Shown in pieces: positions 2,539 through 32,784 of a stretch of DNA of 64,000 nucleotides. The notes under the pieces were generated by a model, which was not told the DNA's origin, ran no database searches, and saw only the letters and a list, made by a program, of their open reading frames with translations. Source of the DNA: an uncultured Bacilli bacterium (GTDB taxonomy: Bacteria > Bacillota_I > Bacilli_A > RFN20 > CAG-826). Positions within the stretch are counted from its first letter, which is position 1. Every line of letters starts with the position of its first letter. The DNA is taken from contig CAKPBC010000001.1 in the NCBI GenBank assembly GCA_934140155.1, positions 589,009 through 653,008 of the forward strand, in the 5' to 3' direction. Both the position numbers and the translations under genes were made by a program.

Positions 2539-3747
2539 TTATTTAACTAATTCTAATAATATCTTTACCATTTTTTCCATTTGAGTTAAAGATACATATT
2601 CGAACTTTCCGTGATAATTATATCCACCAGTTCCTAAATTTGGTGTAGGAAGTCCTTTAACAGTTAATGTTGCTCCATCTGTTCCACCACGAATAGGAGA
2701 GAATTTAAATGGAATATTTAATTTATTGTAAGTTTCAACAACACGGTTAAGCGAACGGGGATCTTTTTCAATATATGGACGCATATTTTGATAACTATCA
2801 GTTATAGATAGAGTAACAATTTCATATTCGTATTTATGATTTAAGATATCTCTAGCAATTTCAAAGTCTTTCTTTTGCTTTTCAAATAATTCTTTTGAGT
2901 GATTACGAATTATGTATTGCATTGAAGTGTGTTCGCAATCCCCTTTTATATTATGCAAATGATTAAATCCTTGATAACCTTCTGTTTTACTTGGAATCAT
3001 ATCGCTTGGTAACAAATCATTAAATTCTTCCGCGACTAAGATAGAATTAATCATCTTTCCTTTAGCGGAACCAGGATGAATGCTTTTACCATAAATTTCG
3101 ACATCAGCAGAAGCAGCATTGAAATTTTCATATTCAATCAAATCAATCTCGCCACCATCAATTGTATAAGCATAGTCAGCATCAAATTCAGTTATATCGA
3201 AATTATCTGTGCCACGACCGATTTCTTCATCTGGAGTGAAAGCAATACTGATTTGTCCATGTTTTATATTAGGGTGTTTAACTAATTCCTCCACTAAAGA
3301 CATGATAATTGCAATACCTGCTTTATCATCAGCGCCCAATAGAGAAGTACCATCAGTAACAATTAAAGTTTCACCAATATTTTTTAAAAGAGTAGGAAAT
3401 GTTTTGGTGTCTAAAATGATGTTTAAATCTTTGTTTAAAACAATATCACTACCATCATAGTTTGTAATTGTTCTTGGCTTTACGTTAGCGCCATTAAAAT
3501 CTGGAGATGTATCCATATGACTTATGAATCCAATTTTATCTTTTGCTTCTTCACAATTTGTTTCGATTTTAGCATATACAATGCCATATTTATTCAAATA
3601 AGCATTAGTAATACCTAAGCTTTGTAAATCATTAACAAGCTTACGAGCAAGATTTAATTGCTTACTTGTTGATGGGTAAGTAGAAGATGATTCATCACTT
3701 TGTGTATCAATATCCACATAACTTAGGAAACGTTCTTTAATATTCAT
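2539..3747 (-). CDS. pepT: peptidase T (tripeptide aminopeptidase, M20B)
   Basis: MNIKERFLSYVDIDTQSDE..., HMDTSPD, GADDKAGIA and PDEEIGRG motifs match PepT. I start at the internal ATG at 3747 (GAAGGG RBS) rather than the ORF-track start at 3780. Confidence 0.9.
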   Translation of the reverse strand: MNIKERFLSYVDIDTQSDESSSTYPSTSKQLNLARKLVNDLQSLGITNAYLNKYGIVYAKIETNCEEAKDKIGFISHMDTSPDFNGANVKPRTITNYDGSDIVLNKDLNIILDTKTFPTLLKNIGETLIVTDGTSLLGADDKAGIAIIMSLVEELVKHPNIKHGQISIAFTPDEEIGRGTDNFDITEFDADYAYTIDGGEIDLIEYENFNAASADVEIYGKSIHPGSAKGKMINSILVAEEFNDLLPSDMIPSKTEGYQGFNHLHNIKGDCEHTSMQYIIRNHSKELFEKQKKDFEIARDILNHKYEYEIVTLSITDSYQNMRPYIEKDPRSLNRVVETYNKLNIPFKFSPIRGGTDGATLTVKGLPTPNLGTGGYNYHGKFEYVSLTQMEKMVKILLELVK

Positions 3748-3854
3748 AATATCAATCCCTTCAAATACAACAAATATCATACACTAATTTTTTAATAAGT
3801 CCATAAATCTGATAAAATATGTTTGCAAAAAAATGTAATTAAATAAATTTAATC

Positions 3855-3883
3855 TTGAATTTATATATATTATTTGTTAGAAT
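3855..3883 (+). promoter_or_regulatory. sigma-A-type promoter of rplS
   Basis: TTGAAT (3855-3860), 17-nt spacer, TAGAAT (3878-3883). Confidence 0.55.
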
Positions 3884-3975
3884 AACAAAGCGTTTGAAAA
3901 AAGCGCCGCAGATGTTCCGCTGGAGATCACTTACTCGAATGAACATTGAAGATAACGAAAAGGAGCGTGTTTATT
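3884..3975 (+). promoter_or_regulatory. about 90-nt rplS 5' leader, possibly an L19-leader-type autoregulatory RNA
   Basis: Locally GC-enriched segment (AAGCGCCGCAGATGTTCCGCTGGAGATCAC...) between the promoter and the RBS in an otherwise AT-rich spacer. Position matches the known L19 leader of Bacillota. Structure not verified. Confidence 0.3.
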
Positions 3976-4323
3976 GTGAACAATAATTTAGTAAAAGAAA
4001 TCGAAAAATCACAATTAAAAACTGATATCCCATCATTCTCTTCTGGTGATACAGTTAATGTTTATGTCCGTATTATTGAAAACGGAAAAGAGAGATTACA
4101 ATTATTCCAAGGCGTTGTCATGGCTCGTGTTGGCGGTGGCGTTGGCGAAACATTTATCGTAAGAAAAATTAGTAATGGCATCGGTGTTGAAAGAACATTC
4201 CCATTACACTCACCTTCAATTAGTAAAATCGAAGTTGTTAAAAAAGGTAAAGTTCGTCGTAACAAAATCTTCTACTTACGTGAACGTTCAGGAAAAGCAG
4301 CTCGTATTAAGACTGTTCTTTAA
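3976..4323 (+). CDS. rplS: 50S ribosomal protein L19
   Basis: [47 protein letters not shown]... is canonical L19. GTG start at 3976 sits 10 nt after the AAGGAG RBS. The ORF-track start at 3946 is probably too far upstream. Confidence 0.9.
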
Positions 4324-4365
4324 TTTTTAGAAATTAATTTAAAAAATAATTTAATAAGTGACTTA

Positions 4366-4396
4366 AAGGTTTCTCTTTATTGAGAGCCTTTTTTGT
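4366..4396 (+). terminator. rho-independent terminator after rplS
   Basis: AAGGTTTCTC / GAGAGCCTT stem (one bulge, one G-U), then TTTTTG. Confidence 0.6.
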
Positions 4397-4459
4397 TGTT
4401 ATAAAAATTGCATTTAATTATAACTTAATTTATAATTAAAAAAGCAAGGAGTTAACGCT

Positions 4460-5053
4460 ATGGAAAAGAAAACAAAGAAAGCAAAAATAATTGATACTTT
4501 ATTTATTATAGCTGTTGTAATGTGCTTTTGTGTGACCTCTCTTTTGCTATATCGTAATATTTGTTACGACAAAGTAATTGTCTCTGGTAGTTCAATGGAA
4601 CCAACTCTTCTTAATGGAGATTATGGACTAATGAAGACTACAAGTGGAGCTAAAAAAAGCATAAAACGTTTTGATATTGTTATTTTCAAAGTTGATGAAA
4701 CAAATACATCAGAAGGTCATGATATTATTAAAAGGATAATTGGAATGCCAGGAGAAACAATTCGCATTGCTACCGATGGAGAAATATTTATAAATGATGA
4801 AATATTAGAACAATCATTTATTAGTGATAGCGCAAAAAAAGCAACATATAGAAGTGGTTCAGTAGCAGCAAATAAAGACTATGAAATCCCAAATAATGCA
4901 TATTTTGCTTTGGGTGATAATCGTGTCGCATCTTCTGATTCAAGAAGTCGTGGCGCTATATCAAAAGATAACATTGATGGTGTATTAAAAATTATTTATA
5001 AGCATTGTGATAATGATAAAGTTTGTAAAAGCATTTCGACAAGATGGTATTAA
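4460..5053 (+). CDS. lepB: signal peptidase I
   Basis: N-terminal TM segment, catalytic SGSSMEPTL box, KRIIGMPGE box, GDNRVASSDSR box. Confidence 0.9.
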   Translation: MEKKTKKAKIIDTLFIIAVVMCFCVTSLLLYRNICYDKVIVSGSSMEPTLLNGDYGLMKTTSGAKKSIKRFDIVIFKVDETNTSEGHDIIKRIIGMPGETIRIATDGEIFINDEILEQSFISDSAKKATYRSGSVAANKDYEIPNNAYFALGDNRVASSDSRSRGAISKDNIDGVLKIIYKHCDNDKVCKSISTRWY

Positions 5054-7445: not shown

Positions 7446-8216
7446 TTGTTAACAGGACAAGATATATTATTATATTTTGCTTTAAAGCATTTAGGAGACT
7501 GGGATAAAATCTATACTTCTATAAAAAATAAGGATAGATTTGATGAAGAAGAATTTATAAGTTTAAAGACGAGATTAAAGAGTTTTTATGTGACCATTAT
7601 AGATGATGCTTATCCCGAGTATTTAAGACATTCTTTTAAGCCTCCATTTGTTATTTTTTATTATGGTAATTTAGATTTATTAATGCTTAATAATCGAATA
7701 ACGGTGGTAGGATCAAGAGATTGCTCTTCTTATGGAGAACAAGCCACTCAAATGGTTGTTAGCGAATTAGCAAAGGAAAATTATGTGATTGTATCTGGCT
7801 TAGCAAGAGGAATAGACGCTGTTGCACATAAAGCGGCAATTGATGCAATGGGAAAAACAATTGCTGTCTTAGGATCAGGTATTGATTATTGCTATCCAAA
7901 ACAAAATAAAGCATTATATGAGAAAATTAAAAATGAACATTTGCTTATTAGTGAATATCCTTTTGATGAATGTGCTAGTAAAGATAATTTTCCTAAACGT
8001 AATCGTTTATTAGCGGCTATTGGTAATGCTGTTTTGGTTACTGAATTTAAAATGCCATCAGGTACTAGCATTACCATTTCTTGTGCTTTAAATTTAGGAA
8101 AAGATATTTATTGTGTTCCTTTTCCTATTAATAAAGAGAATAGTAACAACAAGTTAATTAAAGAAGGAGCGATACTCGTAACTTCGGCATTAGATATCAT
8201 GGATGATAAGAAATAA
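7446..8216 (+). CDS. dprA: DNA-processing protein DprA (Smf)
   Basis: VVGSRDCSSYG, SGLARGIDAVAHKAA and AVLGSGIDYCYP motifs. Start uncertain: TTG at 7446 sits 6 nt after AGGTGA; the ORF-track GTG is at 7437. Confidence 0.85.
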   Translation: MLTGQDILLYFALKHLGDWDKIYTSIKNKDRFDEEEFISLKTRLKSFYVTIIDDAYPEYLRHSFKPPFVIFYYGNLDLLMLNNRITVVGSRDCSSYGEQATQMVVSELAKENYVIVSGLARGIDAVAHKAAIDAMGKTIAVLGSGIDYCYPKQNKALYEKIKNEHLLISEYPFDECASKDNFPKRNRLLAAIGNAVLVTEFKMPSGTSITISCALNLGKDIYCVPFPINKENSNNKLIKEGAILVTSALDIMDDKK

Positions 8217-8340
8217 TGATAGTTTTATACTTGATAAGTTATAAATAGTGATTTTATTGCTATAATATAAGTGCTTTATGAATTATAAGTGGGTCTTTTA
8301 GAATATTAAAATAATTTTTATCAAAAAAAAACAAATTTTT

Positions 8341-8360
8341 CTCATTACTCTAGTAATGAG
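8341..8360. promoter_or_regulatory. 20-bp near-perfect palindrome upstream of topA (operator-like)
   Basis: CTCATTACT-CT-AGTAATGAG has 9-bp arms with a 2-nt centre. The loop is too tight for an RNA hairpin. Followed by TATAAAAAT. Confidence 0.3.
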
Positions 8361-8450
8361 TATAAAAATCATTATATATAAAGGAAAAATAATGTTTGAC
8401 AAATGTGAAAAAAAGATTAAATATTTAATAGTCTATAAGGAGGGATTAGT

Positions 8451-10538
8451 ATGAAACTTGTAATTGTAGAATCTCCAACCAAATGCCATACTATTGGTAA
8501 ATATTTAGGTGATGAATATAAAGTTATGGCATCTTTAGGCCATGTCCGTGACTTATCTATAAAAGGAAAAAGTGGACTTGGTATTGATGTTGAACATGGT
8601 TTTAAACCAACATATGAAGTACAACCTAAGCAAATGGGTGTTGTTCGTGATTTAAAGAAAAATGCTAAAGAAGCTGATGAAGTTATAATTGCGACTGACC
8701 CGGACCGTGAAGGGGAAGCTATTGGTTGGCATTTAGCGGATTTATTAGGGTTAGACATAAATACAACAAAACGTTTAGAATTTCATGAAATTACAAGAAC
8801 AGCAATTACTAATGCTTTAAGTCATCCACGTACTATTGATATGAATCTTGTTGCTTCTCAAGAAACAAGAAGAATATTAGATCGTATTATTGGTTTTAAA
8901 TTATCCTCTTTATTACAAAATAAGATTAAATCTCGTTCGGCAGGTCGAGTTCAATCTTCTTCATTAAAGTTATTAGTGGATCAAGAAAAACTTATTAATG
9001 AATTTGTTCCAGAAGAATATTGGACAATGAATGTTGATTTAGTTAAGGAAGATATAAAACTTACTGCAACATTAAGCGGCGAAACTAAAGTTAAATCTGA
9101 AGAAGACGCTATTAAAATAGAAAATAGTTTAGGAAATACTGCAGAAGTTATTTCTATCGACAAAGTTCGTAAAGTAACAGAATCTAAACCGCCTTTTACA
9201 ACATCCACTATGCAACAAGAAGCATTTAATCGTTATAAATTTTCTACTAAAAAGACTGCAATGGTGGCACAAAAGTTATATGAAGGTATTCAATTAGCGA
9301 CCGAGACAGCAGGTCTTATTACATATATGCGTACTGACTCTGCTCGTTTAGCACCACAATTTGTAGAAAAAGCGCAAGCTTATATTAGTGAAAACTTTGG
9401 TGAAAATTATGTTGGAAAAACTAAAGCAAACAAAAATAAAAATGTTATTCAAGATGCTCATGAAGCAATTCGACCAACATCTTTAACAAGAACACCAGAA
9501 TCAATTAAAAAATATTTAACTAATGATGAATATAAACTTTATAGTTTAATTTATAATCGTGCTTTAGCCTCTTTAATGAGTGCTAAAATTGATGAAGTAA
9601 CAACAATTAAATTTAATTCTAATGGTGTTGAATTAAAAGTTAATGGTGTCGTAAATGTGTTTAATGGCTATAATGCTTTACTTAAAAGCAAAGATGAAGA
9701 TGTTAAAGTTCTTCCAAATGTTGATGTTGGAGAAGTATTTGAAATTCAAGATGTAGTTAAAGAACAACATTTCACTAAAGCTCCAGCAAGATTTTCTGAG
9801 GCTAAACTTGTTAAAACGATGGAAGAAGTCGGTATTGGAAGACCATCAACATATGCATCAACAATTGAAATATTAAAAGCGAGAAAATATGTTAATGTTG
9901 AATCGGGAATCTTAATTCCAACAGAACAAGGACTTAAGACTGACAATTTATTAGAAGAATATTTTACTAATTTAGTTGATCCATCTTTTACTGCCCAAAT
10001 GGAAAAGAATCTTGATGATATTGTTGCGGGTAGTGAATCACGCATTCAATTATTACAAACTTTTTATGATGGTTTTATGACTCAACTTGCTTATGCAAAA
10101 GAGCATATTGAAAAAGCTAAAGATGAACCAAGCGGAAATATTTGTCCAAAATGTGGTTCTCCAATGGTGTTTAAAAATTCAAAATATGGAAAGTTTGAAG
10201 CTTGCTCTAATTATCCACATTGTCACTATATTGCTCCAAAAGAAAAAGCAGAAATTCCAAGCGATGCTCCGATTTGTCCAGAATGTGGTTCCCCACTTGT
10301 ATTAAGAAAAAATAAAAAAGGACAAACATTCTATGGCTGTAGTAATTTCCCAAAATGTCATTACATCATGGAAGATAAAAATGCCAAAGTTGAAGAGCCA
10401 ATTATTGTTGGAAAGTGTCCAGAATGCGGTGGAGATTTACTTGTTAAACAAGGAAAATATTCAAAGTTCATTGGATGTAGCAATTTCCCAACTTGTCACC
10501 ATATGGAAAAATATATCAAACCAAAGAAGGCTAAATAG
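8451..10538 (+). CDS. topA: DNA topoisomerase I (type IA) with three C-terminal C4 zinc ribbons
   Basis: Toprim start MKLVIVESPTK, DPDREGEAI, active-site region ITYMRTDS, and three CP(K/E)CG...CSN(Y/F)P.CH repeats. Confidence 0.95.
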   Translation: MKLVIVESPTKCHTIGKYLGDEYKVMASLGHVRDLSIKGKSGLGIDVEHGFKPTYEVQPKQMGVVRDLKKNAKEADEVIIATDPDREGEAIGWHLADLLGLDINTTKRLEFHEITRTAITNALSHPRTIDMNLVASQETRRILDRIIGFKLSSLLQNKIKSRSAGRVQSSSLKLLVDQEKLINEFVPEEYWTMNVDLVKEDIKLTATLSGETKVKSEEDAIKIENSLGNTAEVISIDKVRKVTESKPPFTTSTMQQEAFNRYKFSTKKTAMVAQKLYEGIQLATETAGLITYMRTDSARLAPQFVEKAQAYISENFGENYVGKTKANKNKNVIQDAHEAIRPTSLTRTPESIKKYLTNDEYKLYSLIYNRALASLMSAKIDEVTTIKFNSNGVELKVNGVVNVFNGYNALLKSKDEDVKVLPNVDVGEVFEIQDVVKEQHFTKAPARFSEAKLVKTMEEVGIGRPSTYASTIEILKARKYVNVESGILIPTEQGLKTDNLLEEYFTNLVDPSFTAQMEKNLDDIVAGSESRIQLLQTFYDGFMTQLAYAKEHIEKAKDEPSGNICPKCGSPMVFKNSKYGKFEACSNYPHCHYIAPKEKAEIPSDAPICPECGSPLVLRKNKKGQTFYGCSNFPKCHYIMEDKNAKVEEPIIVGKCPECGGDLLVKQGKYSKFIGCSNFPTCHHMEKYIKPKKAK

Positions 10539-12785: not shown

Positions 12786-12859
12786 CAACAAAAATCCACT
12801 CTTTGTTGATAAATATTCAATAATGTTGTATTCTTTTTTTGGAAACGGAGGAAAAAAAT

Positions 12860-13324
12860 ATGTCAAATAAAGTAAAAGGTTATTTGCTTGGAATTTTAGC
12901 TTCTTTAGCTGTAGTGGCTCTTTGGATTGTTCTTTATGTTTTTGTTGGCATTATTGCAGGATATATCGGTGCATTGATGGCACTATCAATTATCATGATT
13001 TACAAAAAATTTAATCCAGAAGATAATAGTAATGTTATTTACGTTGTTGCTTCAGTTATCGGATTATTTGAAATCTTCATTGCGGAATTTGCGAGTGTTG
13101 GCATTATGTGCGTTATGAACAATAAAGATTTTGGCAGTGAAGTGGCAAATTCTTTTGTTGGTATAGTACTTGATGTTGTTATTGCAGTCATTTTGTCGGC
13201 TTTAGTTTTATTCTATTACATTAGACAACAAACTAAAAAAGTTGAGACTCGTAAAGTAGAAAGTACAACTTCACCATTAGAAAACATTGAAACAAGTGAA
13301 AAAACAAACGAAAGCGAGAAATAA
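12860..13324 (+). CDS. small integral membrane protein (4 predicted TM spans, charged C-tail), function unknown
   Basis: ATG at 12860 follows a GGAGG RBS. The ORF-track TTG at 12839 is unlikely to be the start. Confidence 0.55.
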   Translation: MSNKVKGYLLGILASLAVVALWIVLYVFVGIIAGYIGALMALSIIMIYKKFNPEDNSNVIYVVASVIGLFEIFIAEFASVGIMCVMNNKDFGSEVANSFVGIVLDVVIAVILSALVLFYYIRQQTKKVETRKVESTTSPLENIETSEKTNESEK

Positions 13325-13326
13325 TC

Positions 13327-13737
13327 ATGGATTTCCAACAAACTAAAGATGAACTAATTACGCAAGGATTAATTTCATCTACTGAGGATTTGATTTTATG
13401 TGAAGATGCTCCTAGTAATTTTGATATTATTATGGGAGGAGCGTTAGGCGCGGCTTTAACTGCGAATAAGCGTAAAGTATATGCTTTAACTGTTGATGAT
13501 AAGCGTATCCAACTTTTTTATTTAGATAAGAAAACTTTAAAATACTTAAACTTAGTTGAGCGTTATAACATTAGCGATTTGAAGAAAATAAAAGCAAGCA
13601 CTTTTTTAGGCTATCAAGTTATATTTAAAACTAATGAACACACTATCAGTTTGCTATCTTCTAAAAAATATCGTGGTTATGATCAAAAAGAGGCTGTTAA
13701 GAGTATTTTTAACAAGTTAAAAGCATTAAAAAAATAA
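13327..13737 (+). CDS. hypothetical protein (possibly bacterial PH-like fold; not verified)
   Basis: 136-aa ORF starting 2 nt after the preceding stop. No motif recognised with confidence. Confidence 0.5.
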
Positions 13738-16534: not shown

Positions 16535-17083
16535 ATGGATGAAGAGTTAATCTTAGAATGTATTGAAGAAATGAATAATGCCCACGCTAATTTTGAAAAG
16601 TCATTAGCGACATTACGTGCTGGACGTGTTTCTCCAGCTGCTTTAGAAGAAGTAAAAGCTGATTATTATGGAGAAAAAACTCCTATTACTTATATTGCTT
16701 CAATTACTAATATGCAATCAAATGTCTTAGTGGTAAAACCATTTGATCGTAATGATGTTAAATCCATCGTTGCCGCTATTAACGAAGCAAATTTAGGTGT
16801 TAATCCAATTAATGATGGAGATTCTATTCGTTTAGTATTCCCAACTCTAACTGAAGATCGTCGTCGTGATTTAGTTAAAGTTGCTAAAAAATATGGCGAA
16901 GAAGCTAAAGTCGCAATTCGTAATATTCGTCGTGATTATAATGACAAAGTTAAAAAGGATAAGGAATTGCCAGAAGATTTAGCTAAAAAGCTTGAAAATG
17001 ATATTCAAAAAGCAACTGATGAGGCTGTTAAAAATATTGATGCTTCTATAGCTAAAAAAGAAAAAGAAATAATGGAGATTTAA
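16535..17083 (+). CDS. frr: ribosome recycling factor
   Basis: LRAGRVSPAALEEVKADYYG, PTLTEDRRRDLVK, IRNIRRD motifs. Confidence 0.95.
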   Translation: MDEELILECIEEMNNAHANFEKSLATLRAGRVSPAALEEVKADYYGEKTPITYIASITNMQSNVLVVKPFDRNDVKSIVAAINEANLGVNPINDGDSIRLVFPTLTEDRRRDLVKVAKKYGEEAKVAIRNIRRDYNDKVKKDKELPEDLAKKLENDIQKATDEAVKNIDASIAKKEKEIMEI

Positions 17084-17114
17084 TTTTATTAGGTAATTTC
17101 ATAATTTATAAATA

Positions 17115-17147
17115 TTGGGGATTTGAAAAAAAGTCTCCAATTTTTTT
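17115..17147 (+). terminator. rho-independent terminator after frr
   Basis: TTGGGGA / TCTCCAA stem (one G-U) followed by T7. Confidence 0.65.
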
Positions 17148-17306
17148 ATGCTGTTTCATCTTGCTTTTAATGTTATACTTTAAATATCAACTAGTAGTGG
17201 AGTTTATTTTTTTGTTTTTTGAAATAAAAATATCAACTCTCGGAAGAGTATGTTAATGTTTTATGACTATTTGTTTTATAATTATGGCGTAGGAGGAAAA
17301 AACAAG

Positions 17307-19277
17307 ATGGAAACAATAGGAGATAGAATTAAAAAGAAAAGAAAAGAAGCCAAAATGACTCAGCTTGAACTTGCGAATAAGTTAAGCGTCACTGATAGGG
17401 CTGTTAGTAAATGGGAACAAAATGAAGGAAACCCTGATATTAGTATCCTTCCTAAAATTGCAGAAATTTTCAATGTTACATTGGATTATTTAATGACAGG
17501 TAGTGAGCCAAAAAAAGAAATTATTATAATGTCGAAATTAGAACTATGTGCAAAAAGCGATGATCCGACGATGATAAAATCTTTAACATCTGATAGAGAT
17601 GAAAACGGAAAGAATCTTTTGGATTATGTAAAAAAATATAATAGTAAAAAAGTTTTAAAAGCATTAATAGATAATCATAGTTACCAAAATTATTATAATC
17701 GTCTTTTGCAGAGAGCATCTACAGTGTCTGCTACAAAGATGGCTATTGAAATAATGTTAACATGTATTCCAGTAGATAGAGAAAGAGAAGTAATAGAAGA
17801 AGTTTTTCACTCAGAAATTAGAACTACTGACGATAAATTTATAGAGGCTTTAAAGTGTAACATAAATGACAGTATAGAAATTGCTGAAGGTTTAAAAAGT
17901 GTTTTTAAATTTTTAGTAGAAAATTATGATGGTTTATCAAAAAAGCAAAAAGAATACTATTTTAATCTGGCAGAAAACGAAGAAGAAAGTGGACCTAATT
18001 GCTGGATTACAGCATATCCATATTTTGTTGAATACGCAATTTTAGAAAATAACGACGCATTATATGAAATGCTTATTTCACAAATCGAAAGACACAATAA
18101 ATGGGTCGAAACATCAAAAACTAGTATAAAAAAGCAACATAGAAATAGTGAATATGATTATTATCTGCAATTTTTTAAAGGTGTTAATTTATATTTGCTA
18201 CCATCAACATTCAATTATTTAATTTCCAAAAAGAATTTTAGACTTGCATATAGAGTAAATGCACTTTTAAGAAATCCACATACAAAAAGAGAAATTGAAC
18301 TTTTAGAAGTTGAAAATAATGATACTATTAACGAAAAAGAAAAAATAGAATTTCGTTGTATTGACTGTCATATGATAGTGTTAGAAGAAATAGAAAAATT
18401 AAAAGACTTAACATATATTAAAGAAATTTTAGATAATAACTATGTCAATTATTATGAAATGGTTTATAAATTATTAAAAACAAACAAAAAGGCTTTATTT
18501 AAGTTTTTTGTTGATAATAATTTAATTGAATTATCTGAACTTTTAATGAATGATAACGAGAAGAAATTATTAAATCAAAGCTGGGTGTATTTTAATTATC
18601 ACGCAGGCGATGAATTGACATTAAAACAATCAATTATTATTACAAACGATTCAAAAAAAGCATCAAAAGACAAAAAATATGTTTATTATAGAGATTTTGA
18701 GTATAAACTAGCTGAACTAATTGATACTGATTTAGATTTTGAATCACAAAAAACAAGTGATAATGCGATCATTAAATATTTTGAAATGTTTAAAAATGAT
18801 GTGTTTAATAAAATAAAAACAATAATAGATGCTGAAAACAAAGAAAAAGAAGAAAAGTTAGAAAAGGCGAGACTAACAAAAGAACTGACTCGTCCGTATT
18901 TTGAAAACCTTCTCTTAATGGGCAATGAAGATATGTTTATAGTTAAACTATGCTCGTTATTTGAGACTATATTGCGTTTTGATTATAAATGTGACCATGA
19001 TAATATTTATGAAAATATGAAACAATTTTTTGATAAAGGCCCTAAAAGCCGTGATATTGATGATGGGTGGGGATATATGACATTAGATACTGAATACGAA
19101 GAACGCTATGTAAAACCATGGAATGAAAAAAAAGATTTAATGAATAAATTAAGACTTAAAAGAAATTCTATAGTTCATCCAGAAAGAAACGAACACGCTG
19201 ATTTGAGCGAAGAAGAGTTAAAAAAATGTTTAGACTTTGTCTTTGCTGCTAACGGAGGAAATATATTCAATGAATAA
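17307..19277 (+). CDS. XRE-family HTH protein with long helical-repeat (ankyrin-like?) body and C-terminal HEPN-like domain (Rx4H)
   Basis: 656 aa from ATG 17307 (AGGAGG RBS). The N-terminus MTQLELANKLSVTDRAVSKWEQNEGNPDISILPKIAEIFNVTLDYLMTG is a classic XRE HTH. DENGKNLLDYVKKYNSKKVLKALIDN is ankyrin-like. The C-terminus LMNKLRLKRNSIVHPE carries R-N-x3-H (R619..H624, nt 19161-19178) flanked by helix-like segments. Confidence 0.6.
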   Translation: METIGDRIKKKRKEAKMTQLELANKLSVTDRAVSKWEQNEGNPDISILPKIAEIFNVTLDYLMTGSEPKKEIIIMSKLELCAKSDDPTMIKSLTSDRDENGKNLLDYVKKYNSKKVLKALIDNHSYQNYYNRLLQRASTVSATKMAIEIMLTCIPVDREREVIEEVFHSEIRTTDDKFIEALKCNINDSIEIAEGLKSVFKFLVENYDGLSKKQKEYYFNLAENEEESGPNCWITAYPYFVEYAILENNDALYEMLISQIERHNKWVETSKTSIKKQHRNSEYDYYLQFFKGVNLYLLPSTFNYLISKKNFRLAYRVNALLRNPHTKREIELLEVENNDTINEKEKIEFRCIDCHMIVLEEIEKLKDLTYIKEILDNNYVNYYEMVYKLLKTNKKALFKFFVDNNLIELSELLMNDNEKKLLNQSWVYFNYHAGDELTLKQSIIITNDSKKASKDKKYVYYRDFEYKLAELIDTDLDFESQKTSDNAIIKYFEMFKNDVFNKIKTIIDAENKEKEEKLEKARLTKELTRPYFENLLLMGNEDMFIVKLCSLFETILRFDYKCDHDNIYENMKQFFDKGPKSRDIDDGWGYMTLDTEYEERYVKPWNEKKDLMNKLRLKRNSIVHPERNEHADLSEEELKKCLDFVFAANGGNIFNE

Positions 19278-19932
19278 ATATCAATTAAATTTTTTAAAAC
19301 AAATAATTGTTAGTGTAGATGGAACCGATGGTGTGGGTGATTACGAATTAGATAATGAAGGCAACCTTATCATTATACAAAATGAAAACTATAACATCAC
19401 AAGTTATACTTTAAAAATAAAAAATAAAGATATATCTTCTGTTTTTTATTATATTAATGACTGGAGCAAAGTAAATTCAAATGATGATGTAATATCGGTT
19501 CCTATTGATTTCAATAATCCGACTAAAACAATTAAAATAGAATTTAAAAACGGGTTAGTTGATGACTTTGAGATAAATGTTTTGTTAAAAAGCGCAGATA
19601 AAGATGCATGGAATATAAAGCATTCAAGAGAAGTTAAAGAAGAAAGATTAAAAAATGTAGGGTTAGTTTTAAATAATGATGGTCATTTACATACTGTGAT
19701 TTTTAAACCATGCTGTGATGAATATTTATATACAATTGTTAAATGGTATGCAATAGGATATTCAAAAGGAAATTATTATAATACAATAAGCAATCATTTT
19801 TTAGAAGAACAAAAAATTCAAAATAGTTTTTATTCAAATATTGAATGTGCTTTTTATGTTGCTGCCGAAATAACTCAATTTGATAAAGATGGAAAAGAAT
19901 TAATATCATCAACTATTGGGTTCAAAAGTTGA
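19270..19932 (+). CDS. hypothetical protein, beta-rich, no family recognised (cassette gene B)
   Basis: 220 aa from ATG 19270 (GGAGGA RBS). Its start overlaps the upstream stop by 8 nt (ATGAATAA), implying translational coupling. Confidence 0.6.
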   Translation: MNKYQLNFLKQIIVSVDGTDGVGDYELDNEGNLIIIQNENYNITSYTLKIKNKDISSVFYYINDWSKVNSNDDVISVPIDFNNPTKTIKIEFKNGLVDDFEINVLLKSADKDAWNIKHSREVKEERLKNVGLVLNNDGHLHTVIFKPCCDEYLYTIVKWYAIGYSKGNYYNTISNHFLEEQKIQNSFYSNIECAFYVAAEITQFDKDGKELISSTIGFKS

Positions 19933-19957
19933 GTTTAGACTTGAGTAGGTGATAATT

Positions 19958-20932
19958 TTGAAATATTTATTTTTTGATATAGAATGCTCAAATTGTTTTA
20001 AAAAAAGTCCAAAAATATGCGAATTTGGTTATGTGCTAACTGATGATAAGTTCCAAGTTATTAGAAAAGATGATATACCTATGTCGCCTGGAAGAAAATG
20101 TGCTGACAATAGATTTGACACAACAATTTATAAAAGAGATCCAAATTTTCAGTGGGCATATGATCTTGATTATTATTTTGAATGTCCAGAATTTCTTCAA
20201 TATTATGAATTTATAAAACAATTGTTTAAAAAAGAAGATGTTTTAATATTTGGATATTCAGTCGAAAATGATGTTAGATATCTAGATAATGCTTTTAAAA
20301 GATATAAATTAAATCCAATTGAATATAAAATATATGACATCCAAAAAATGATGAAATATTATTCTGAAAAGAAAGAAAAAATTATGGGATTAGAGAATGC
20401 ATTTAAAAAGCTTTGTTCTATTGATGAGTTTATAAAATTACAACCGCATTTATCTAGAGATGACGCTATTATGGCAATGAGAGTTTTACAAAAAATGTGT
20501 GAAAATCTTAATGTTACCCCAATAGAAATGATAGAACTTTGTGATAAATGTAAATATGATTCCGCAGAGTATTTGACTGAATATTATAATAGACGAAAAG
20601 AAAAAGAGATTCTCGAATGTCGAAAATCATCAGGACTAGTAATATGGGAAGAGTTTTACAAAAGTGAAATATCATTTTTAGAAAACGAAAATTCAATTGG
20701 AAAAATAGTTACTATTAGTGGCAAAATAAAAGAAAATATAAATGCTTTAAATGAAGTAATTGATATAATTAAAGAAAAAAATTTTGTTGCTTTTGATAAG
20801 ATTGGTGGATCGGATTATTTAATAACATTGGATGAAGAAGATACAACCAGAATTAAAAAAGTGTTAAAGTATCCATATTCAGGAAAAGTAATTAGTATTC
20901 AAGAATTTAAAAATTTAGAGATAAAAATTTGA
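19958..20932 (+). CDS. DEDDh-type 3'-5' exonuclease (DnaQ/KapD-like) with C-terminal BRCT-like domain (cassette gene C)
   Basis: ExoI FFDIECS, ExoII FGYSVENDVRYL, ExoIII HLSRDDAIMA (H-x4-D). The C-terminal GKIVTISGKI...GGSDYLITLDEED...GKVISIQEFKNL resembles BRCT of LigA-type proteins. Start uncertain: TTG at 19958 after AGGTGA, or GTG at 19949. Confidence 0.7.
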   Translation: MKYLFFDIECSNCFKKSPKICEFGYVLTDDKFQVIRKDDIPMSPGRKCADNRFDTTIYKRDPNFQWAYDLDYYFECPEFLQYYEFIKQLFKKEDVLIFGYSVENDVRYLDNAFKRYKLNPIEYKIYDIQKMMKYYSEKKEKIMGLENAFKKLCSIDEFIKLQPHLSRDDAIMAMRVLQKMCENLNVTPIEMIELCDKCKYDSAEYLTEYYNRRKEKEILECRKSSGLVIWEEFYKSEISFLENENSIGKIVTISGKIKENINALNEVIDIIKEKNFVAFDKIGGSDYLITLDEEDTTRIKKVLKYPYSGKVISIQEFKNLEIKI

Positions 20933-20976
20933 TAAGTATTACTATATTTAAATTTCGTTATTAAGCTTAAAAAATA

Positions 20977-21020
20977 AAAAAGTTCGTTCCGTGAAATATC
21001 AATCGGTTCGAACTTTTTTT
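20977..21020 (+). terminator. rho-independent terminator closing the three-gene cassette
   Basis: AAAAAGTTCG-TT-CCG ... CGG-TT-CGAACTTTTT long interrupted stem followed by a T-run. Confidence 0.65.
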
Positions 21021-21138
21021 ATTACTTTGCTAGTAATTGCCATTTATTTTTATTAAAATATATCAAAAAAGCAAAAAAGTTGCTATTTATATTACTACAC
21101 TATGTGTATAATATAAATAAAGTTAGGTGGTGGCGTAG

Positions 21139-21867
21139 TTGAAAAAAGAATTTGTACTTCAAAAAAAATTGGACCACATCGCCTTCATTATGGATGGGAA
21201 TGGCCGTTGGGCTAAAAAAAGATTACTTCCTAGACATTTAGGCCATAAAGAAGGTTGTAAAAGAGTTATAGAAATTGTTCGCGCTTGTTGTGATTTAAAT
21301 ATTTATTGCGTAAGTCTATACGCTTTTTCTACAGAAAACTGGAAAAGGCCACAAGATGAAATTGACCATCTTTTTTACTATTTAGATGATTTCTTTAATA
21401 ATAATATTGAAGAATTTATTGAAAAAGGTGTTAGAGTTCATTTAATGGGCGATATTAATCGTTTACCATTACATACCCAAGAAACAATAAAACGCTCGAT
21501 GAATATGACAAAAGATTTAAACAAACATGTTTTTAATGTTTGTTTAAATTATGGTGGAAAAGATGAAATTGTTCGAGCCGCAATAAGTCTTGCTAAAGAC
21601 GTTAAAGATAATAAAGTTGATATTTCTCAAATTGATGAAACAATATTTGAAAACCATATGATGTGTCATGGTTTACCTCCAGTAGACTTAATGATTAGAA
21701 CATCAGGTGAACAAAGAATATCAAATTATATGTTATGGGAATTAGCGTATGCTGAAATGATATTTCCTACTACACCTTGGCCAAGTTTTACCAAGGATGA
21801 ACTTATTAAATGCTTAGAGATTTATCAAAAAAGAGATAGAAGATTTGGAGGGCTAAAGAATGAATAA
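21139..21867 (+). CDS. uppS: isoprenyl transferase (undecaprenyl-diphosphate synthase)
   Basis: HIAFIMDGNGRWAKKR, YAFSTENWKRP, IRTSGEQRISNYMLWE motifs. TTG start after AGGTGGTGG. Confidence 0.92.
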   Translation: MKKEFVLQKKLDHIAFIMDGNGRWAKKRLLPRHLGHKEGCKRVIEIVRACCDLNIYCVSLYAFSTENWKRPQDEIDHLFYYLDDFFNNNIEEFIEKGVRVHLMGDINRLPLHTQETIKRSMNMTKDLNKHVFNVCLNYGGKDEIVRAAISLAKDVKDNKVDISQIDETIFENHMMCHGLPPVDLMIRTSGEQRISNYMLWELAYAEMIFPTTPWPSFTKDELIKCLEIYQKRDRRFGGLKNE

Positions 21868-29722: not shown

Positions 29723-29793
29723 ATTGCTCATATTTATTGCTCACTTTTATTGATTTATTGCTCACTTTTTGATATTATAAAGGTGAGCAATAA
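29721..29793 (+). promoter_or_regulatory. promoter with array of TTATTGCTCA(C) boxes (3 direct + 1 inverted), a putative autoregulatory operator
   Basis: Boxes at 29721-29730, 29734-29744 and 29755-29765 (direct) and 29783-29793 (inverted, GTGAGCAATAA). Putative -35 TTGATT (29750-29755), 17-nt spacer, -10 TATTAT (29773-29778). Box 3 lies in the spacer; the inverted box lies between -10 and the RBS. Confidence 0.45.
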
Positions 29794-29806
29794 AGGAGAT
29801 ACTCTT

Positions 29807-31207
29807 ATGGATATAGAATTTTTTAAAGAACTTATTCAGTATGAATATGAAAAAGAATGGATTGAGTTTAAAGAAAATTGGTATAACAGAGAAGAAATAG
29901 GAGAGTACATTTCGGCGTTATCGAATGTTGCAACTATTTGTGGTGTACCATACTCTTATATGATATGGGGCATAAAAGATAAAACGCATGAAGTAATAGG
30001 AACATCATTTAATTTTGATAAAGAAGAAAAAGGTGAGTCTTTAAAACATTACCTATCTAGAAACTTAACGCCTTCTATTTTATATACTTTTGAAGAACTT
30101 GAATATTTAGAAAAAAGAGTTGTTATTTTAACAATATCAGCAGCCAAATTGGTTCCAACAGAGTTTAATAAAGAAAGATTTATAAGAATAGGATCTAGTA
30201 AAGAACAATTAAGAAAATTCCCTATTATTGAAGCATCATTATGGGAAAAACTTAGAAAAGTTAATGATTCCATTTTAAATCACGAAGCTCCAAGACAAGA
30301 TTTAACTTTTAATAAACTTCTCCTTTATTACATGACAAAAGACTTACCTTTAAAAACAAATACTTTTAAAGAAGATTTATTCTTTTATGTACCTAATACT
30401 AAAAAATATAATCTCTTAGCGTATTTAATGGCAGATAAGAATAATGTAATTATGCGAGTATCTGTCTTTGAAGGAACAAAGAAGTCAGATAACCTTTATT
30501 CAATTAAAGAATTTGGAAATCAATGCATAATTTATACAATCGATCAAGTCCTTGAATACTGTAATATCATTAATGTGATGCAAAATGATGAATCTAATAG
30601 AGTTGTAGAAAGAAAAGAAATTCCTCTTTTTGATTCTAAAGCTTTAAGAGAAGCAATTCTTAATGCATTTATTCATAATGATTGGTTAGACTTAAATGCT
30701 CCGATGGTTTCTGTTTTTAATGATAGAATTGATATATTATCATATGGAACACTTCCTAATGGGCAGACTATTGAAGGATTTTATGCCGGAAAAAGTAAGC
30801 CGAGATGTAGGGAACTTTCTGATATATTCTTGCAATTAAGAATTAGTGAAAGATCTGGCCGAGGTGTTAATAAAATAGTGGATGTTTATGGCAAAGATGC
30901 ATTTACTTTCGGACAAGATTATATAAAAGTGTCGATTAAATACAACCGCCTTCTTGCTCACAAATCAAAAAAACGTGAGCAAGAAAGTGAGCAAGAAAAA
31001 AATAAAAAAATAAGTAAACCTCAGTTAAATATGAATAGAATTGTTTCCGAAATGCGAAATAATCCTAGTGTTACTACGATAGAATTAATAAATATTTTAG
31101 GATTAAAAAAGACATCAATTCAAAAATATATTCGTATATTACAAGAAAACGGAGTAGTTAAACGTGTTGGTGCAAATAAAAACGGATATTGGGATGTTTT
31201 AAAATAA
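29807..31207 (+). CDS. AlbA_2 (Schlafen-type) domain / HATPase_c_4 / C-terminal winged-HTH protein ('RecG-like ATP-binding transcriptional regulator' family)
   Basis: 466 aa from ATG 29807 (AAAGGAG RBS). N-terminal E.EWIEFKENW AlbA_2 signature, ISERSGRGVNKI HATPase_c_4-type motif, C-terminal TTIELINILGLKKTSIQKYIRILQENGVVKRVG wHTH. Confidence 0.75.
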   Translation: MDIEFFKELIQYEYEKEWIEFKENWYNREEIGEYISALSNVATICGVPYSYMIWGIKDKTHEVIGTSFNFDKEEKGESLKHYLSRNLTPSILYTFEELEYLEKRVVILTISAAKLVPTEFNKERFIRIGSSKEQLRKFPIIEASLWEKLRKVNDSILNHEAPRQDLTFNKLLLYYMTKDLPLKTNTFKEDLFFYVPNTKKYNLLAYLMADKNNVIMRVSVFEGTKKSDNLYSIKEFGNQCIIYTIDQVLEYCNIINVMQNDESNRVVERKEIPLFDSKALREAILNAFIHNDWLDLNAPMVSVFNDRIDILSYGTLPNGQTIEGFYAGKSKPRCRELSDIFLQLRISERSGRGVNKIVDVYGKDAFTFGQDYIKVSIKYNRLLAHKSKKREQESEQEKNKKISKPQLNMNRIVSEMRNNPSVTTIELINILGLKKTSIQKYIRILQENGVVKRVGANKNGYWDVLK

Positions 31208-31357: not shown

Positions 31358-31621
31358 AATGATTTTACACTTGAATTCTCTAGAATAGATAGAAATAAAG
31401 CTGGCGAAATAAATGGCGAAATAAATGGCGAAATATCAGAAGAAGAATTCTCTGTTTTAAGTGTTTTTAAAACTAATAAAAATGCGACAAAAGATGAAGT
31501 TATCAAACAAACCGGTATTTCAAGTAGAACAATTGATAGAATTATTAAATCGTTGAAAGAAAAAGAATTGCTGAAAAGGGTTGGTGCAAATAAAAACGGC
31601 TATTGGAATGTTTTAAAATAA
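31358..31621 (+). pseudogene. 3' fragment (last ~87 codons) of a second AlbA_2/HATPase_c_4/wHTH regulator paralog
   Basis: Open frame without a start codon: NDFTLEFSRIDRNKAGEINGEINGEISEEEFSVLSVFKTNKNATKDEVIKQTGISSRTIDRIIKSLKEKELLKRVGANKNGYWNVLK. It aligns with the C-terminus of the 29807-31207 product. Confidence 0.65.
31403..31435 (+). repeat. 12-nt tandem repeat GGCGAAATAAAT x2.75 (encodes GEIN-GEIN-GEI linker)
   Basis: Directly visible. Analogous 12-nt duplications occur at 30974-30997 (xGTGAGCAAGAA x2) and 50721-50744 (GACCAAATAAAT x2) in the two paralogs. Confidence 0.9.
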
Positions 31622-31684
31622 AAAATAGGAGAGATAAGAAAATGGAAAAAATAATAAAACAAACAATTGAATATGAAAATTATA
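31580..31684 (+). repeat. copy 2 of the segmental duplication (intact version, leads into the 31642 CDS)
   Basis: See 31166-31256. The offset between copies is 414 bp. Confidence 0.8.
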
Positions 31685-32103
31685 AACAAAGCTTTTTTAT
31701 AATGATTGGAATGTTTTGTGTTTTAACTATATTATTTACTATACCTTTTTTGACTTTATATTTTACTAAATCTGATAATAGATATTTGATTGCTTTTATA
31801 GTGTTTATGGCACTTAATATTATAATTTGTTTACCATTCATAATATACAATATATATCGCATGCATTTTATTACGCAAATGGGAAAGAAAATGAAGATAA
31901 CTGAAGTGGAACTAAATAATTCAAATTCAGGAGTTTATGGATTAATGCGCTTTTATATTAATATTCCTAATTCTAATGGGAAAATTAAAGAAAAGAAAAG
32001 TTTATGTACAATGCGTGGAAGTCTTTTTAATCGGTATCAAAATAAAAAAGTAAAAATTTGTTATTTAGATAATTATGAATATTTCTTTATTGTCAAAGAA
32101 TAA
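31642..32103 (+). CDS. two-TM membrane protein with C-terminal soluble domain, function unknown
   Basis: 153 aa from ATG 31642 (AGGAGAG RBS). The ORF-track start at 31603 reads through the pseudogene stop region. Confidence 0.6.
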   Translation: MEKIIKQTIEYENYKQSFFIMIGMFCVLTILFTIPFLTLYFTKSDNRYLIAFIVFMALNIIICLPFIIYNIYRMHFITQMGKKMKITEVELNNSNSGVYGLMRFYINIPNSNGKIKEKKSLCTMRGSLFNRYQNKKVKICYLDNYEYFFIVKE

Positions 32104-32208
32104 ATATAACATCATTATTTAGGTGTAAGTCTCTAATGAAAATTGGAGATTTTTTGATGACACTTTAAAATATGTACAATGTTCAAAAATATGTTGACAA
32201 AAATCGTC

Positions 32209-32219
32209 GGGGGGGGGGG
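32209..32219 (+). repeat. G11 homopolymer (candidate slipped-strand contingency tract)
   Basis: 11 consecutive G in a strongly AT-rich sequence. Lies between TTGACA (32194-32199) and TATGAT (32220-32225), 29 nt upstream of the ATG at 32248. Confidence 0.9.
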
Positions 32220-32247
32220 TATGATATATGAGAAAAGAGGTTTTTAT

Positions 32248-32784
32248 ATGAAAAAAGAAAAAAGTTTAAAGGCACTAAGCATTAAGGCTGTAGTCTTTAG
32301 TGCAATTGTTGCGGCTTTCGCGTTGTTTTGTGATCCGCTAAGTCTAACATTTAACATTTTTAGAGGAGATAAAGTAATATTTAACTTTTTTACAATTGCA
32401 GTGCCAAGATATGACTATGCGCCAGAAGATATTGCATTACTATATTATGGGGCAAATGTCATTATCGTTTTACTAGTTGTTGCTACACTTGTTTTAAGTA
32501 TTTTAGCTTTATTAAATCAAAAAGGTAAGATGGTAAATGCCACTAACGGAATTACTAAAGCATTAAAAATTGTTTCAAAACTTGCATTTGGTTTAGGCGC
32601 TTTCCTTGCTAACATTGTTAATGTTGCTTTAGGTTTTATTACTTGTGGTGGAAATGGTGTTGTTACCCTTATTATTTATTTCGTTATTCTTATTTTAGCA
32701 TCAATTATGAATACAACATGTAAGAATTACGCAAATAGAATTCTTCCAGCTAAACAAAATAAAGCAGTTGCTGAAAATAAATAA
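32248..32784 (+). CDS. polytopic membrane protein (about 4 TM), function unknown
   Basis: 178 aa from ATG 32248 (AAGAGG RBS). The ORF-track start at 32179 would add 23 aa, including GGGG encoded by the G-tract. Confidence 0.6.
   Translation: MKKEKSLKALSIKAVVFSAIVAAFALFCDPLSLTFNIFRGDKVIFNFFTIAVPRYDYAPEDIALLYYGANVIIVLLVVATLVLSILALLNQKGKMVNATNGITKALKIVSKLAFGLGAFLANIVNVALGFITCGGNGVVTLIIYFVILILASIMNTTCKNYANRILPAKQNKAVAENK

Follow-up and report, generated by a model that had tools for sequence, protein, structure and literature searches.

Several described systems share parts with the locus analysed here. In RosmerTA toxin-antitoxin (TA) systems, a helix-turn-helix (HTH) domain and an ImmA/IrrE-type zinc peptidase occur as a fusion or as a pair, together with the cognate RmrT toxin. 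Our subject is a three-gene cassette, A-B-C, located between frr and uppS, which are adjacent in Bacillus-type genomes, in a stretch of 64,000 nucleotides from an uncultured Bacilli bacterium (contig CAKPBC010000001.1; this whole stretch is called the window below). Its products are predicted to be an XRE-type HTH protein with a helical body and a C-terminal HEPN-like domain (A), a tandem beta-sandwich protein (B) and a DEDDh 3'-5' exonuclease (C). The architectures listed in a survey of the HEPN superfamily (PMC3710099) include none that joins an XRE HTH, an ankyrin-like or helical body and a HEPN domain with an obligate tandem-FN3 partner, and a full-text search of the literature found no paper describing such an architecture; all of the domain types are familiar from conflict systems, and it is their combination for which no published description was found. 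The cassette is probably an undescribed, autoregulated, nuclease-based conflict module, of anti-phage/abortive-infection or toxin type, with A and B as its core. Such a module is the best fit because of the strict two-gene core, the autoregulatory DNA that belongs to it, the swappable nucleases with intact motifs and the patchy distribution over variable sites. The catalytic motifs are invariant in HEPN-bearing A proteins and in C, and no housekeeping family in Pfam or NCBIfam claims A, B or C. A role in defence is proposed solely on the basis of domain content and genomic context.

The genes of the array all lie on the forward strand, in the order rpsB-tsf-pyrH-frr, A-B-C, uppS-cdsA-dxr-rseP-polC. 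An intrinsic terminator found by terminator scan after frr (frr at 16535-17083; terminator at 17114..17147, with a hairpin at 17114-17141 and then a T-run; RNA fold -13.1 kcal/mol, z -4.4) is the predicted upstream boundary of the cassette and would shield it from frr read-through. Gene A (17307..19277, 656 aa) most likely starts at the ATG at 17307, because AGGAGG lies 10 nt upstream (17291-17296) and the homologues all begin METIGDRIK there; an alternative ATG at 17250 is used by the list of open reading frames (ORFs) and by the gene calls on related contigs. The ATG of gene B (19270..19932, 220 aa) lies within ATGAATAA, which also contains the TAA of gene A, and B has a ribosome-binding site (RBS) and is translationally coupled to A via this overlap. 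For gene C (19958..20932, 324 aa) the most likely start is the TTG at 19958, because MKYLFFD there is the N-terminus of C homologues; the alternative is a GTG at 19949. A second intrinsic terminator (20976..21020, hairpin at about 20976-21019 and then a T-run; -16.6 kcal/mol, z -5.9) is the predicted downstream boundary, and uppS starts at 21139. An earlier sequence-only reading of the window had proposed that the conserved frr-uppS junction is interrupted by a self-contained unit of three co-oriented genes, bounded by the frr terminator and by a dedicated terminator before uppS. The ORFs and folds bear out its coordinates and gene relationships: frr and uppS are 4.05 kb apart, the A/B overlap and the B/C gap measure 8 nt and 25 nt (about 25 nt had been claimed), and the unit has its own terminators and its own conserved regulatory region. 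What had been called a promoter-like element before uppS comes down to an extended -10 (TGTGTATAAT, 21104-21113) read by eye. A transposon or integrative insertion was considered as the origin of the unit and rejected, since the window contains no tRNA and no meaningful direct or inverted repeats flanking the cassette, and the sequence 3' of the gene C stop is not conserved among loci; nor does the window contain an integrase.

In other genomes the A-B-C order and the same 5' region recur together at unrelated sites, namely beside cotJB/Mn-catalase (L001-3), near spoIVA and a peptidase (L004), beside rhamnose genes, DUF2130 and ACPS (L008), and after an SLFN_AlbA_2 ATPase and an HNH gene (L009), and A plus B are found at more than 15 further sites in metagenome-assembled genomes (MAGs) of Clostridia and Bacilli and in gut metagenomes. 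The co-occurrence elsewhere that the sequence-only reading had suggested looking for is thus present. A metagenome scan with a six-sequence, HTH-less alignment of A added further loci, and a hidden Markov model (HMM) census covered all of the loci gathered. With a full alignment of A on genome contigs the HTH swamped the output, and only L010-L013 were true full-length relatives; a broad alignment of B and an eight-sequence alignment of A were too divergent to serve as locus queries. Gene B lies directly 3' of A in essentially every locus long enough to judge. One locus in which A is not followed by B, L120 (9842-11476 and 5202-6353, both on the reverse strand), has a large serine recombinase there and a MobA/VirD2 relaxase upstream, and the module in it seems to lie in or beside an integrative mobilisable element (IME).

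Gene C is far less constant. It is present in the window clade and in the 5/5 HEPN-less A loci that were sampled, so that every version examined retains at least one nuclease, and it is absent from most loci of a third clade, in which A bears HEPN and is about 590-740 aa long (including the named Eubacteriales, Clostridia and Bacilli MAGs). Where C is absent the third position is empty, or is taken by an HNH_4 nuclease or by a small RNxxxH protein that we call 'S'. Copies of the HNH_4 nuclease (316-317 aa) from different lineages are 56% identical; its gene follows B in loci that lack C (L118 2950-3903; L123 3346-4299) and precedes A in loci that have C (L009 6781-7731; L104 3107-4090). 'S' is a helical protein of 160-185 aa with an RNxxxH motif of its own; hhalign placed its RN..VH on that of HEPN with E 9e-4 and a probability of only 23%, and Pfam gave no match, so it is a HEPN-like candidate only. 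In L138, a 405-aa protein (7740-8954) joins an A-type HTH and ankyrin-like N-terminus to a B domain and is followed by 'S' (8976-9527), which reads as a minimal two-gene version of the module. Proteins P0110-P0120 (about 422 aa) were also considered as HTH-B fusions and were rejected, as they contain no B domain. In a sister strain with a 94% identical A (L007), A and B are intact and C (3684-4678, corresponding to window 19958-20932) is frameshifted by a 20-nt tandem duplication (TATTTGACTGAATATTATAA twice), either through pseudogenisation of an accessory nuclease or as an assembly artefact. In two HEPN-less loci, both of clade II, an extra HTH_3 protein of 326-329 aa stands between B and C (L110 3039-4028; L136 10452-11432). 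The conserved core is the A+B pair, with which a regulatory region of about 130 bp travels, and C is accessory. As C is missing from most HEPN-bearing lineages, swapped for other nucleases and frameshifted in the sister strain, the unit is A plus B rather than a fixed trio. Of the trio that had been put forward as a candidate defence unit, it is the recurrence at unrelated sites that stands, and its fixed composition that gives way to a core with an accessory gene.

The upstream regions align over about 130 nt among loci at unrelated genomic sites, and were compared in a census of about 43 distinct regions and in one alignment of 31 loci. The order of elements within the family is a promoter (in many loci), an inverted repeat O1, a second repeat with a box, a -10 box and the RBS. 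In the window O1 lies at 17184..17204 on the forward strand and reads ATATCAAC-TAGTA-GTGGAGTT, a putative operator for the HTH of A. The family consensus is AATTCTAC-N5-GTAGAGTT, with the core TCTAC-N5-GTAGA; the window clade has ATATCAAC-N5-GTGGAGTT, and the core in the window is TCAAC-N5-GTGGA. O1 is present in about 40/43 distinct upstream regions, 110-128 nt before the ATG, including those of distant clades at unrelated sites; the chance expectation, as we estimate it from the degeneracy of the pattern, is about 0.006 per region. A consensus promoter, TTGAC-N17-TATAAT, lies directly 5' of O1 in many loci. The second element, O2, with its conserved box (17236..17253, forward strand), is the palindrome ACTCT-CGGA-AGAGT followed by ATGT. 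Its counterpart in the family is TCTAC-N5-GTAG with a AAGTAGGTTTAC box, placed immediately before the proximal -35 or overlapping with it; across the family this other TCTAC-like repeat is accompanied by a AAGTAGGTTTAC(T/A)TTTT box that hardly varies and is ACTCTCGGAAGAGTATGT in the window. O2 is identical in window-clade loci at four different genomic sites, and its position is kept throughout the family. The proximal -10 of the cassette promoter is assigned to the TATAAT at 17277..17282 (forward strand) from a block of conserved columns, which in the alignment of 31 loci is T[AG]TAAT-like and often TGnTAnAAT.

A structured RNA or riboswitch in the leader was entertained and rejected in favour of DNA operators and promoters, as Rfam returned no matches, RNAalifold found 0 pairs over the 31 loci, and the fold of the leader RNA has a z of only -1.3. 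The arms of O1 occur as TCTAC/GTAGA, TCAAC/GTGGA, TCAAC/GTAGA and TCCAC/GTAGA, that is, with uncompensated changes at their central positions. Because the middles of the arms vary without compensation and no pairs were called, O1 is better understood as a DNA site than as an RNA hairpin. The simplest reading is that O1 and O2 are putative operators for a dimer of A and overlap its own promoter or promoters, which would make the operon autoregulated.

The N-terminus of A (aa 8-62; 17328-17492, forward strand) matches HTH_3 of Pfam with E 3.5e-15 and 56.2 bits, the cut-off being 23. By PDB profile search and Foldseek its closest solved structures are ICEBs1 ImmR and P22 c2, with template modelling (TM) scores of 0.88-0.93 over about 64 residues. 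By a profile above the curated threshold and by its predicted fold, the domain belongs to the XRE/Cro-C1 class of HTH. The AlphaFold2 model of A is all helical, with a predicted local distance difference test (pLDDT) score of 88. The HTH is directly followed by an ankyrin-like segment that is nearly invariant, SKxELCAKxDD...DENGKxLxDYxKxYNSxKVLKALID; Ank_2 matches 7/30 members of the A family, and no TPR matches were found in A with Pfam. The last ~130 residues of the family carry LRxxRNxxVH, and the HEPN-like domain of the window protein spans about aa 525-650, with its Rx4H motif at R619-N-S-I-V-H624 (19161-19178, forward strand). R619, N620 and H624 are invariant among HEPN-bearing members, and correspond to R98, N99 and H103 in an alignment of the domain in which R95 is also invariant. 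When the C-terminal domains of 16 family members were scanned alone, 15 matched HEPN_RiboL-PSP (PF18735; best E 3.3e-6) and 10 matched DUF4145; there were also weak Pfam matches to Apea and Swt1, and a PDB profile search with the domain gave only a marginal match to ApeA (E 0.83). We accept the domain as HEPN at the superfamily level, and as a predicted RNase. The sequence-only reading of A as an XRE HTH, a helical body and a HEPN-like Rx4H domain agrees with the HTH_3 match, the all-helical model and the 15/16 C-terminal domains, the match of the window protein itself being sub-threshold. Against the sister strain, the ratio of nonsynonymous to synonymous substitution rates (dN/dS) is 0.16 for A and 0.11 for B, indicating purifying selection.

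B had been called an orphan, and it is one still, with no family match in Pfam, NCBIfam, PADLOC or PHROGs. Its AlphaFold2 model (pLDDT 86.7) consists of two tandem FN3/Ig-like beta-sandwiches, and Foldseek matched it to tandem FN3 and cytokine-receptor folds, more weakly to arrestin/Vps26, and also to FN3 modules of phage tail proteins. As modelled, this is a binding fold and not an enzyme fold. A HMMER scan of 1.84 billion proteins found relatives of B in about 208 representative clusters, nearly all of them stand-alone proteins of 220-270 aa. B is a predicted cytoplasmic protein and the constant partner of A.

In C, a DEDDh 3'-5' exonuclease domain (aa 1 to about 185) is followed by a tail of about 130 aa. 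Its catalytic residues D7/E9, N104-D105 and H164-x4-D169 are invariant in 32 diverse homologues, so that Exo I (DxE), Exo II (D) and Exo III (Hx4D) are all conserved and the DEDDh signature is complete. PHROG 192 matched C with E 8.5e-13, and the CRISPR-associated DEDDh model of PADLOC with E 1e-5. In Pfam, the 32 members matched RNase_T (18/32, best E 1.9e-7), DEDDh_C (12/32) and DNA_pol_A_exo1 (10/32); the C protein of the window reaches 20.3 bits against RNase_T, below the cut-off of 24. Cas2-DEDDh 8fyc was the only PDB match (E 0.004). By its motifs and profiles, C is thus a predicted DEDDh (DnaQ-like) 3'-5' exonuclease. That part of the sequence-only reading is supported by the motifs and by PHROG 192; the BRCT-like tail that it also proposed is not confirmed. 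The resemblance of the last ~95 aa to BRCT is by eye only, Pfam found BRCT in 1/32 members, weakly (E 0.017), and a PDB profile search with the tail alone did not find it. The tail varies between clades, and is different and Cys-rich in the C proteins of clade II.

These observations can be arranged into a scheme, the individual steps of which are hypotheses. As the conserved sites suggest, A would dimerise on O1 and O2 via its XRE HTH and so keep the operon low. Its helical, ankyrin-like body would be a scaffold bound by B, and B would act as a trigger sensor or as a brake on the nuclease; the binding of A and B is suggested because of their strict adjacency, their translational coupling and the one natural fusion. 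On a trigger, for example a product of a phage or mobile element, the HEPN domain of A, with its conserved Rx4H, could become an active RNase, and C may degrade nucleic acid from free 3' ends, whether invader DNA or RNA fragments. C would be one of several interchangeable nuclease modules, the HNH nuclease and the small RNxxxH protein being others, and in HEPN-less versions the DEDDh enzyme would be the sole nuclease. A wider proposal, which we advance tentatively, is that A plus B may be a new and widespread family of immune modules in gut Bacillota, in which an operator-bound repressor with a repeat scaffold and, in about half of the cases, HEPN is controlled by an obligate tandem-FN3 partner and takes plug-in DEDDh, HNH or HEPN-like nuclease cartridges, so that detection of an invader would directly link relief of operon repression to activation of the nuclease.

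The genomic surroundings of the family touch on defence and mobile DNA in several places. Genes similar to AriA/AriB (PARIS-type) follow one A-B-C-like locus. An SLFN_AlbA_2 gene, a serine-recombinase fragment and a Fic gene surround A-B in L013, and a serine recombinase is nearby in L136. A lone C, without A or B, lies directly upstream of an MkoA-like helicase (PADLOC E 2.6e-73). In that locus (L098 7001-11940) the C-type DEDDh gene is followed by the MkoA-like (Mokosh) SF1 helicase and then by a 481-aa protein without assigned function, and we note that this may be a Mokosh-like variant with DEDDh instead of a PLD nuclease. An island shared by L099 (1-14948) and L100 holds another lone C, which adjoins a gene for a 111-aa relative of HNH_4, together with an IetA-like AAA ATPase adjoining an 822-aa HSP70-like protein, an HTH + PIN + ankyrin protein, and isochorismatase, PRTase, radical SAM, AAA_17 and UPRTase-like genes. 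The HTH-PIN-ankyrin protein follows the same design logic as A, with PIN replacing HEPN.

A number of observations weigh against a conflict module. Many copies stand amid ordinary metabolic or housekeeping genes, as in the window, and the link with defence and mobile DNA is real but anecdotal, not statistical. The defence or abortive-infection function offered by the sequence-only reading is accordingly supported in part, by the copies beside AriA/AriB-, MkoA- and IetA-like genes, and weakened by the many amid housekeeping genes. PADLOC matched no system, which fits novelty and equally a role outside defence. The HEPN domain of the window protein scores 25.4 bits against PF18735, below the curated cut-off of 28.4, and Foldseek with the whole chain of A returned only HTH matches and weak RNPP-like ones. 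Among the top 120 clusters of the A family, 59 have HEPN and about 45 are full-length without it; as almost half of the family is without HEPN, this RNase cannot be the universal effector. The fold of B, as modelled, is generic and gives no functional clue. The presence/absence polymorphism that the sequence-only reading had suggested looking for at the frr-uppS junction was not seen within the species: 16 contigs with an identical Frr were read, and 8/8 of the places shown carry the cassette there, or its start as far as the contig reaches, as does the strain with the 94% identical A. The cassette therefore appears fixed at this site in the window species. Its codon third-position G+C content (GC3, 0.145-0.186) cannot be told apart from that of the core genes on either side, and, being fixed in the species and equal to its neighbours in GC3, it is not a recent arrival. 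The foreign composition that had been suspected survives only as a weak signal in overall G+C, which is 26.0% in the cassette and 29.9% in the window, with a standard deviation of 2.1 for windows of the same size; this places the cassette in the lowest 6% of such windows, and two other stretches of the window are equally low. The weakness of the signal suggests an old, ameliorated acquisition.

Of the other explanations, the one that shares most with a conflict module is a TA-like addiction or stress module without a dedicated anti-phage role, in which the toxin would be HEPN or C, the HTH part of A would join B as a DNA-binding antitoxin and autorepressor, and the unit would persist as a selfish element. 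Palindromic operators at its own promoter, overlapping and translationally coupled genes, the similarity of the A HTH to TA antitoxins, including the RosmerTA antitoxin RmrA, and the occurrence of small solitary cassettes amid housekeeping genes would all be expected of it, and L138 resembles a classic pair, with an HTH and B-domain protein followed by a small RNxxxH protein. However, in size A far exceeds typical antitoxins or toxins, and it carries its DNA-binding domain and its nuclease on a single chain, and variable extra nucleases and closeness to defence genes are more typical of immune systems. We regard it as unlikely on its own terms, and it overlaps with the conflict module that we prefer, as TA and abortive infection are not mutually exclusive.

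It is more doubtful still that the cassette is a cellular regulatory operon, with A as an RNPP-like transcription factor that senses a ligand or peptide and governs B, C and possibly other genes, for example in nucleic-acid turnover, competence or repair, and with a non-catalytic or regulatory HEPN. The weak Foldseek matches to the HTH-plus-repeat proteins PlcR, ComR and PrgX (E about 0.01) point this way, as do the fixation of the cassette in the species next to core genes, a GC3 resembling that of its neighbours and the many A members without HEPN. Yet RNPP proteins are matched with TM scores of only 0.1-0.2; no peptide gene was noticed beside the cassette, although none was searched for systematically; the R-N-x3-H motif is invariant wherever the HEPN domain exists; the patchy distribution and variable location are unlike a core pathway; nuclease partners are swapped between versions; and no housekeeping family of NCBIfam or Pfam matches. 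Least probable by some distance is an origin in an integrative mobile element, of which the cassette would be the remnant or the cargo, be it an integrative and conjugative element (ICE), an IME or a prophage, with A as an ImmR/cI-type immunity repressor and B and C as genes of the element. ICEBs1 ImmR and P22 c2 are indeed the best matches of the A HTH, and there are the relaxase and serine recombinase of L120 and the serine recombinase genes near L136 and L013. Against this, searches with C, which was the protein covered, found no homologue in IMG/VR, in the phages of INPHARED or in the plasmids of PLSDB, the window is without integrase, tRNA or flanking repeats, mobile-element genes are absent from most loci, and the conserved unit stops right after its last gene.

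The candidate is one among many nuclease modules predicted by computation. If it does act in defence or as a toxin, the nuclease-based immunity of gut Firmicutes, from which few systems have been validated by experiment, would gain a new architecture. Two families of orphan proteins, B (about 200 clusters at 50% identity) and the body of A, would acquire a function, and nature would have supplied an experiment in effector swapping, with a single sensor and regulator core combined with HEPN, DEDDh or HNH. Through its conserved operator, the regulatory part can be tested directly. Without a link to defence, the cassette would remain an unusually mobile operon with autoregulation, set in a housekeeping array that is highly conserved.

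Some other features of the window have counterparts in other loci. Directly after polC (29750-31207, forward strand) lies a gene for a 485-aa protein with SLFN_AlbA_2, HATPase_c_4 and HTH_24 domains, which is 47% identical to a gene that precedes the cassette of L009 by about 2 kb; genes like it are also found next to A-B in L013 and to the lone C in L098. It is followed by two unannotated ORFs (31603-32103 and 32179-32784), which lie within a low-GC stretch at about 31.5-35 kb (25-26% G+C). Just upstream of rpsB (12839-13737, forward strand) are two further small unannotated ORFs, of 161 aa (predicted membrane-like) and 136 aa, whose counterparts in L090 come after an XerC-type integrase gene.

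Compared with described systems, the cassette corresponds, as far as its profiles indicate, to no named anti-phage system of PADLOC-DB v2.0.0, in keeping with the sequence-only reading, which had been unable to match the trio to any: A matches through its HTH only (RmrA, HTH_VI, capH, PDC-M69A), B not at all, and C through the generic DEDDh model only. With XRE-HTH regulators of TA and defence systems, A shares clear profile similarity (PADLOC HTH_VI 7.5e-13, RmrA 3e-10, capH 5.7e-6; ImmR 1e-12), and the cassette shares palindromic operators at its own promoter and a downstream gene that overlaps A. The similarity is, however, limited to the first ~70-135 residues; unlike RmrA, CapH or ImmR-type regulators, A is 656 aa long, has a nuclease domain of its own and has no ImmA/IrrE-type peptidase partner or domain. 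The cassette is as such outside RosmerTA, the RmrA models aligning at most to residues 3-137 of A and no peptidase family being detected in A, B or C with Pfam or NCBIfam. A resembles the RNPP regulators PlcR, ComR, PrgX and Rgg in its N-terminal XRE HTH and helical-repeat body, and these were the top whole-chain Foldseek matches; the matches are faint (E about 0.01, TM 0.10-0.21), and A is twice as long and has a HEPN-like end. As judged from the model, which gave no clear structural match, and from the lack of a TPR match in Pfam, A does not appear to belong to the RNPP class.

The layout and putative operators of the cassette are compatible with a type II TA operon. With HEPN Abi and toxin proteins (AbiD/AbiF/AbiJ-type, PF18735, DUF4145), A shares an all-helical C-terminal domain with an invariant R-N-x3-H, the best profile matches of which are to HEPN_RiboL-PSP and DUF4145, although A scores below the curated cut-off and almost half of its family is without the domain. 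Like many HEPN conflict proteins, A has this domain fused to others and is encoded in a small accessory operon. For C, the best PDB and PADLOC matches are the Cas2-DEDDh of type I-E CRISPR (PDB 8fyc/8fy9) and the PADLOC 'DEDDh' model, with which it shares the three Exo motifs, DEDD plus His. This similarity is very weak (E 0.004, one motif covered), C has a clade-variable tail of its own, and no CRISPR-Cas genes lie near it. Like the DEDDh exonucleases that are attached to immune systems, C is nevertheless a stand-alone accessory nuclease beside immune-type genes.

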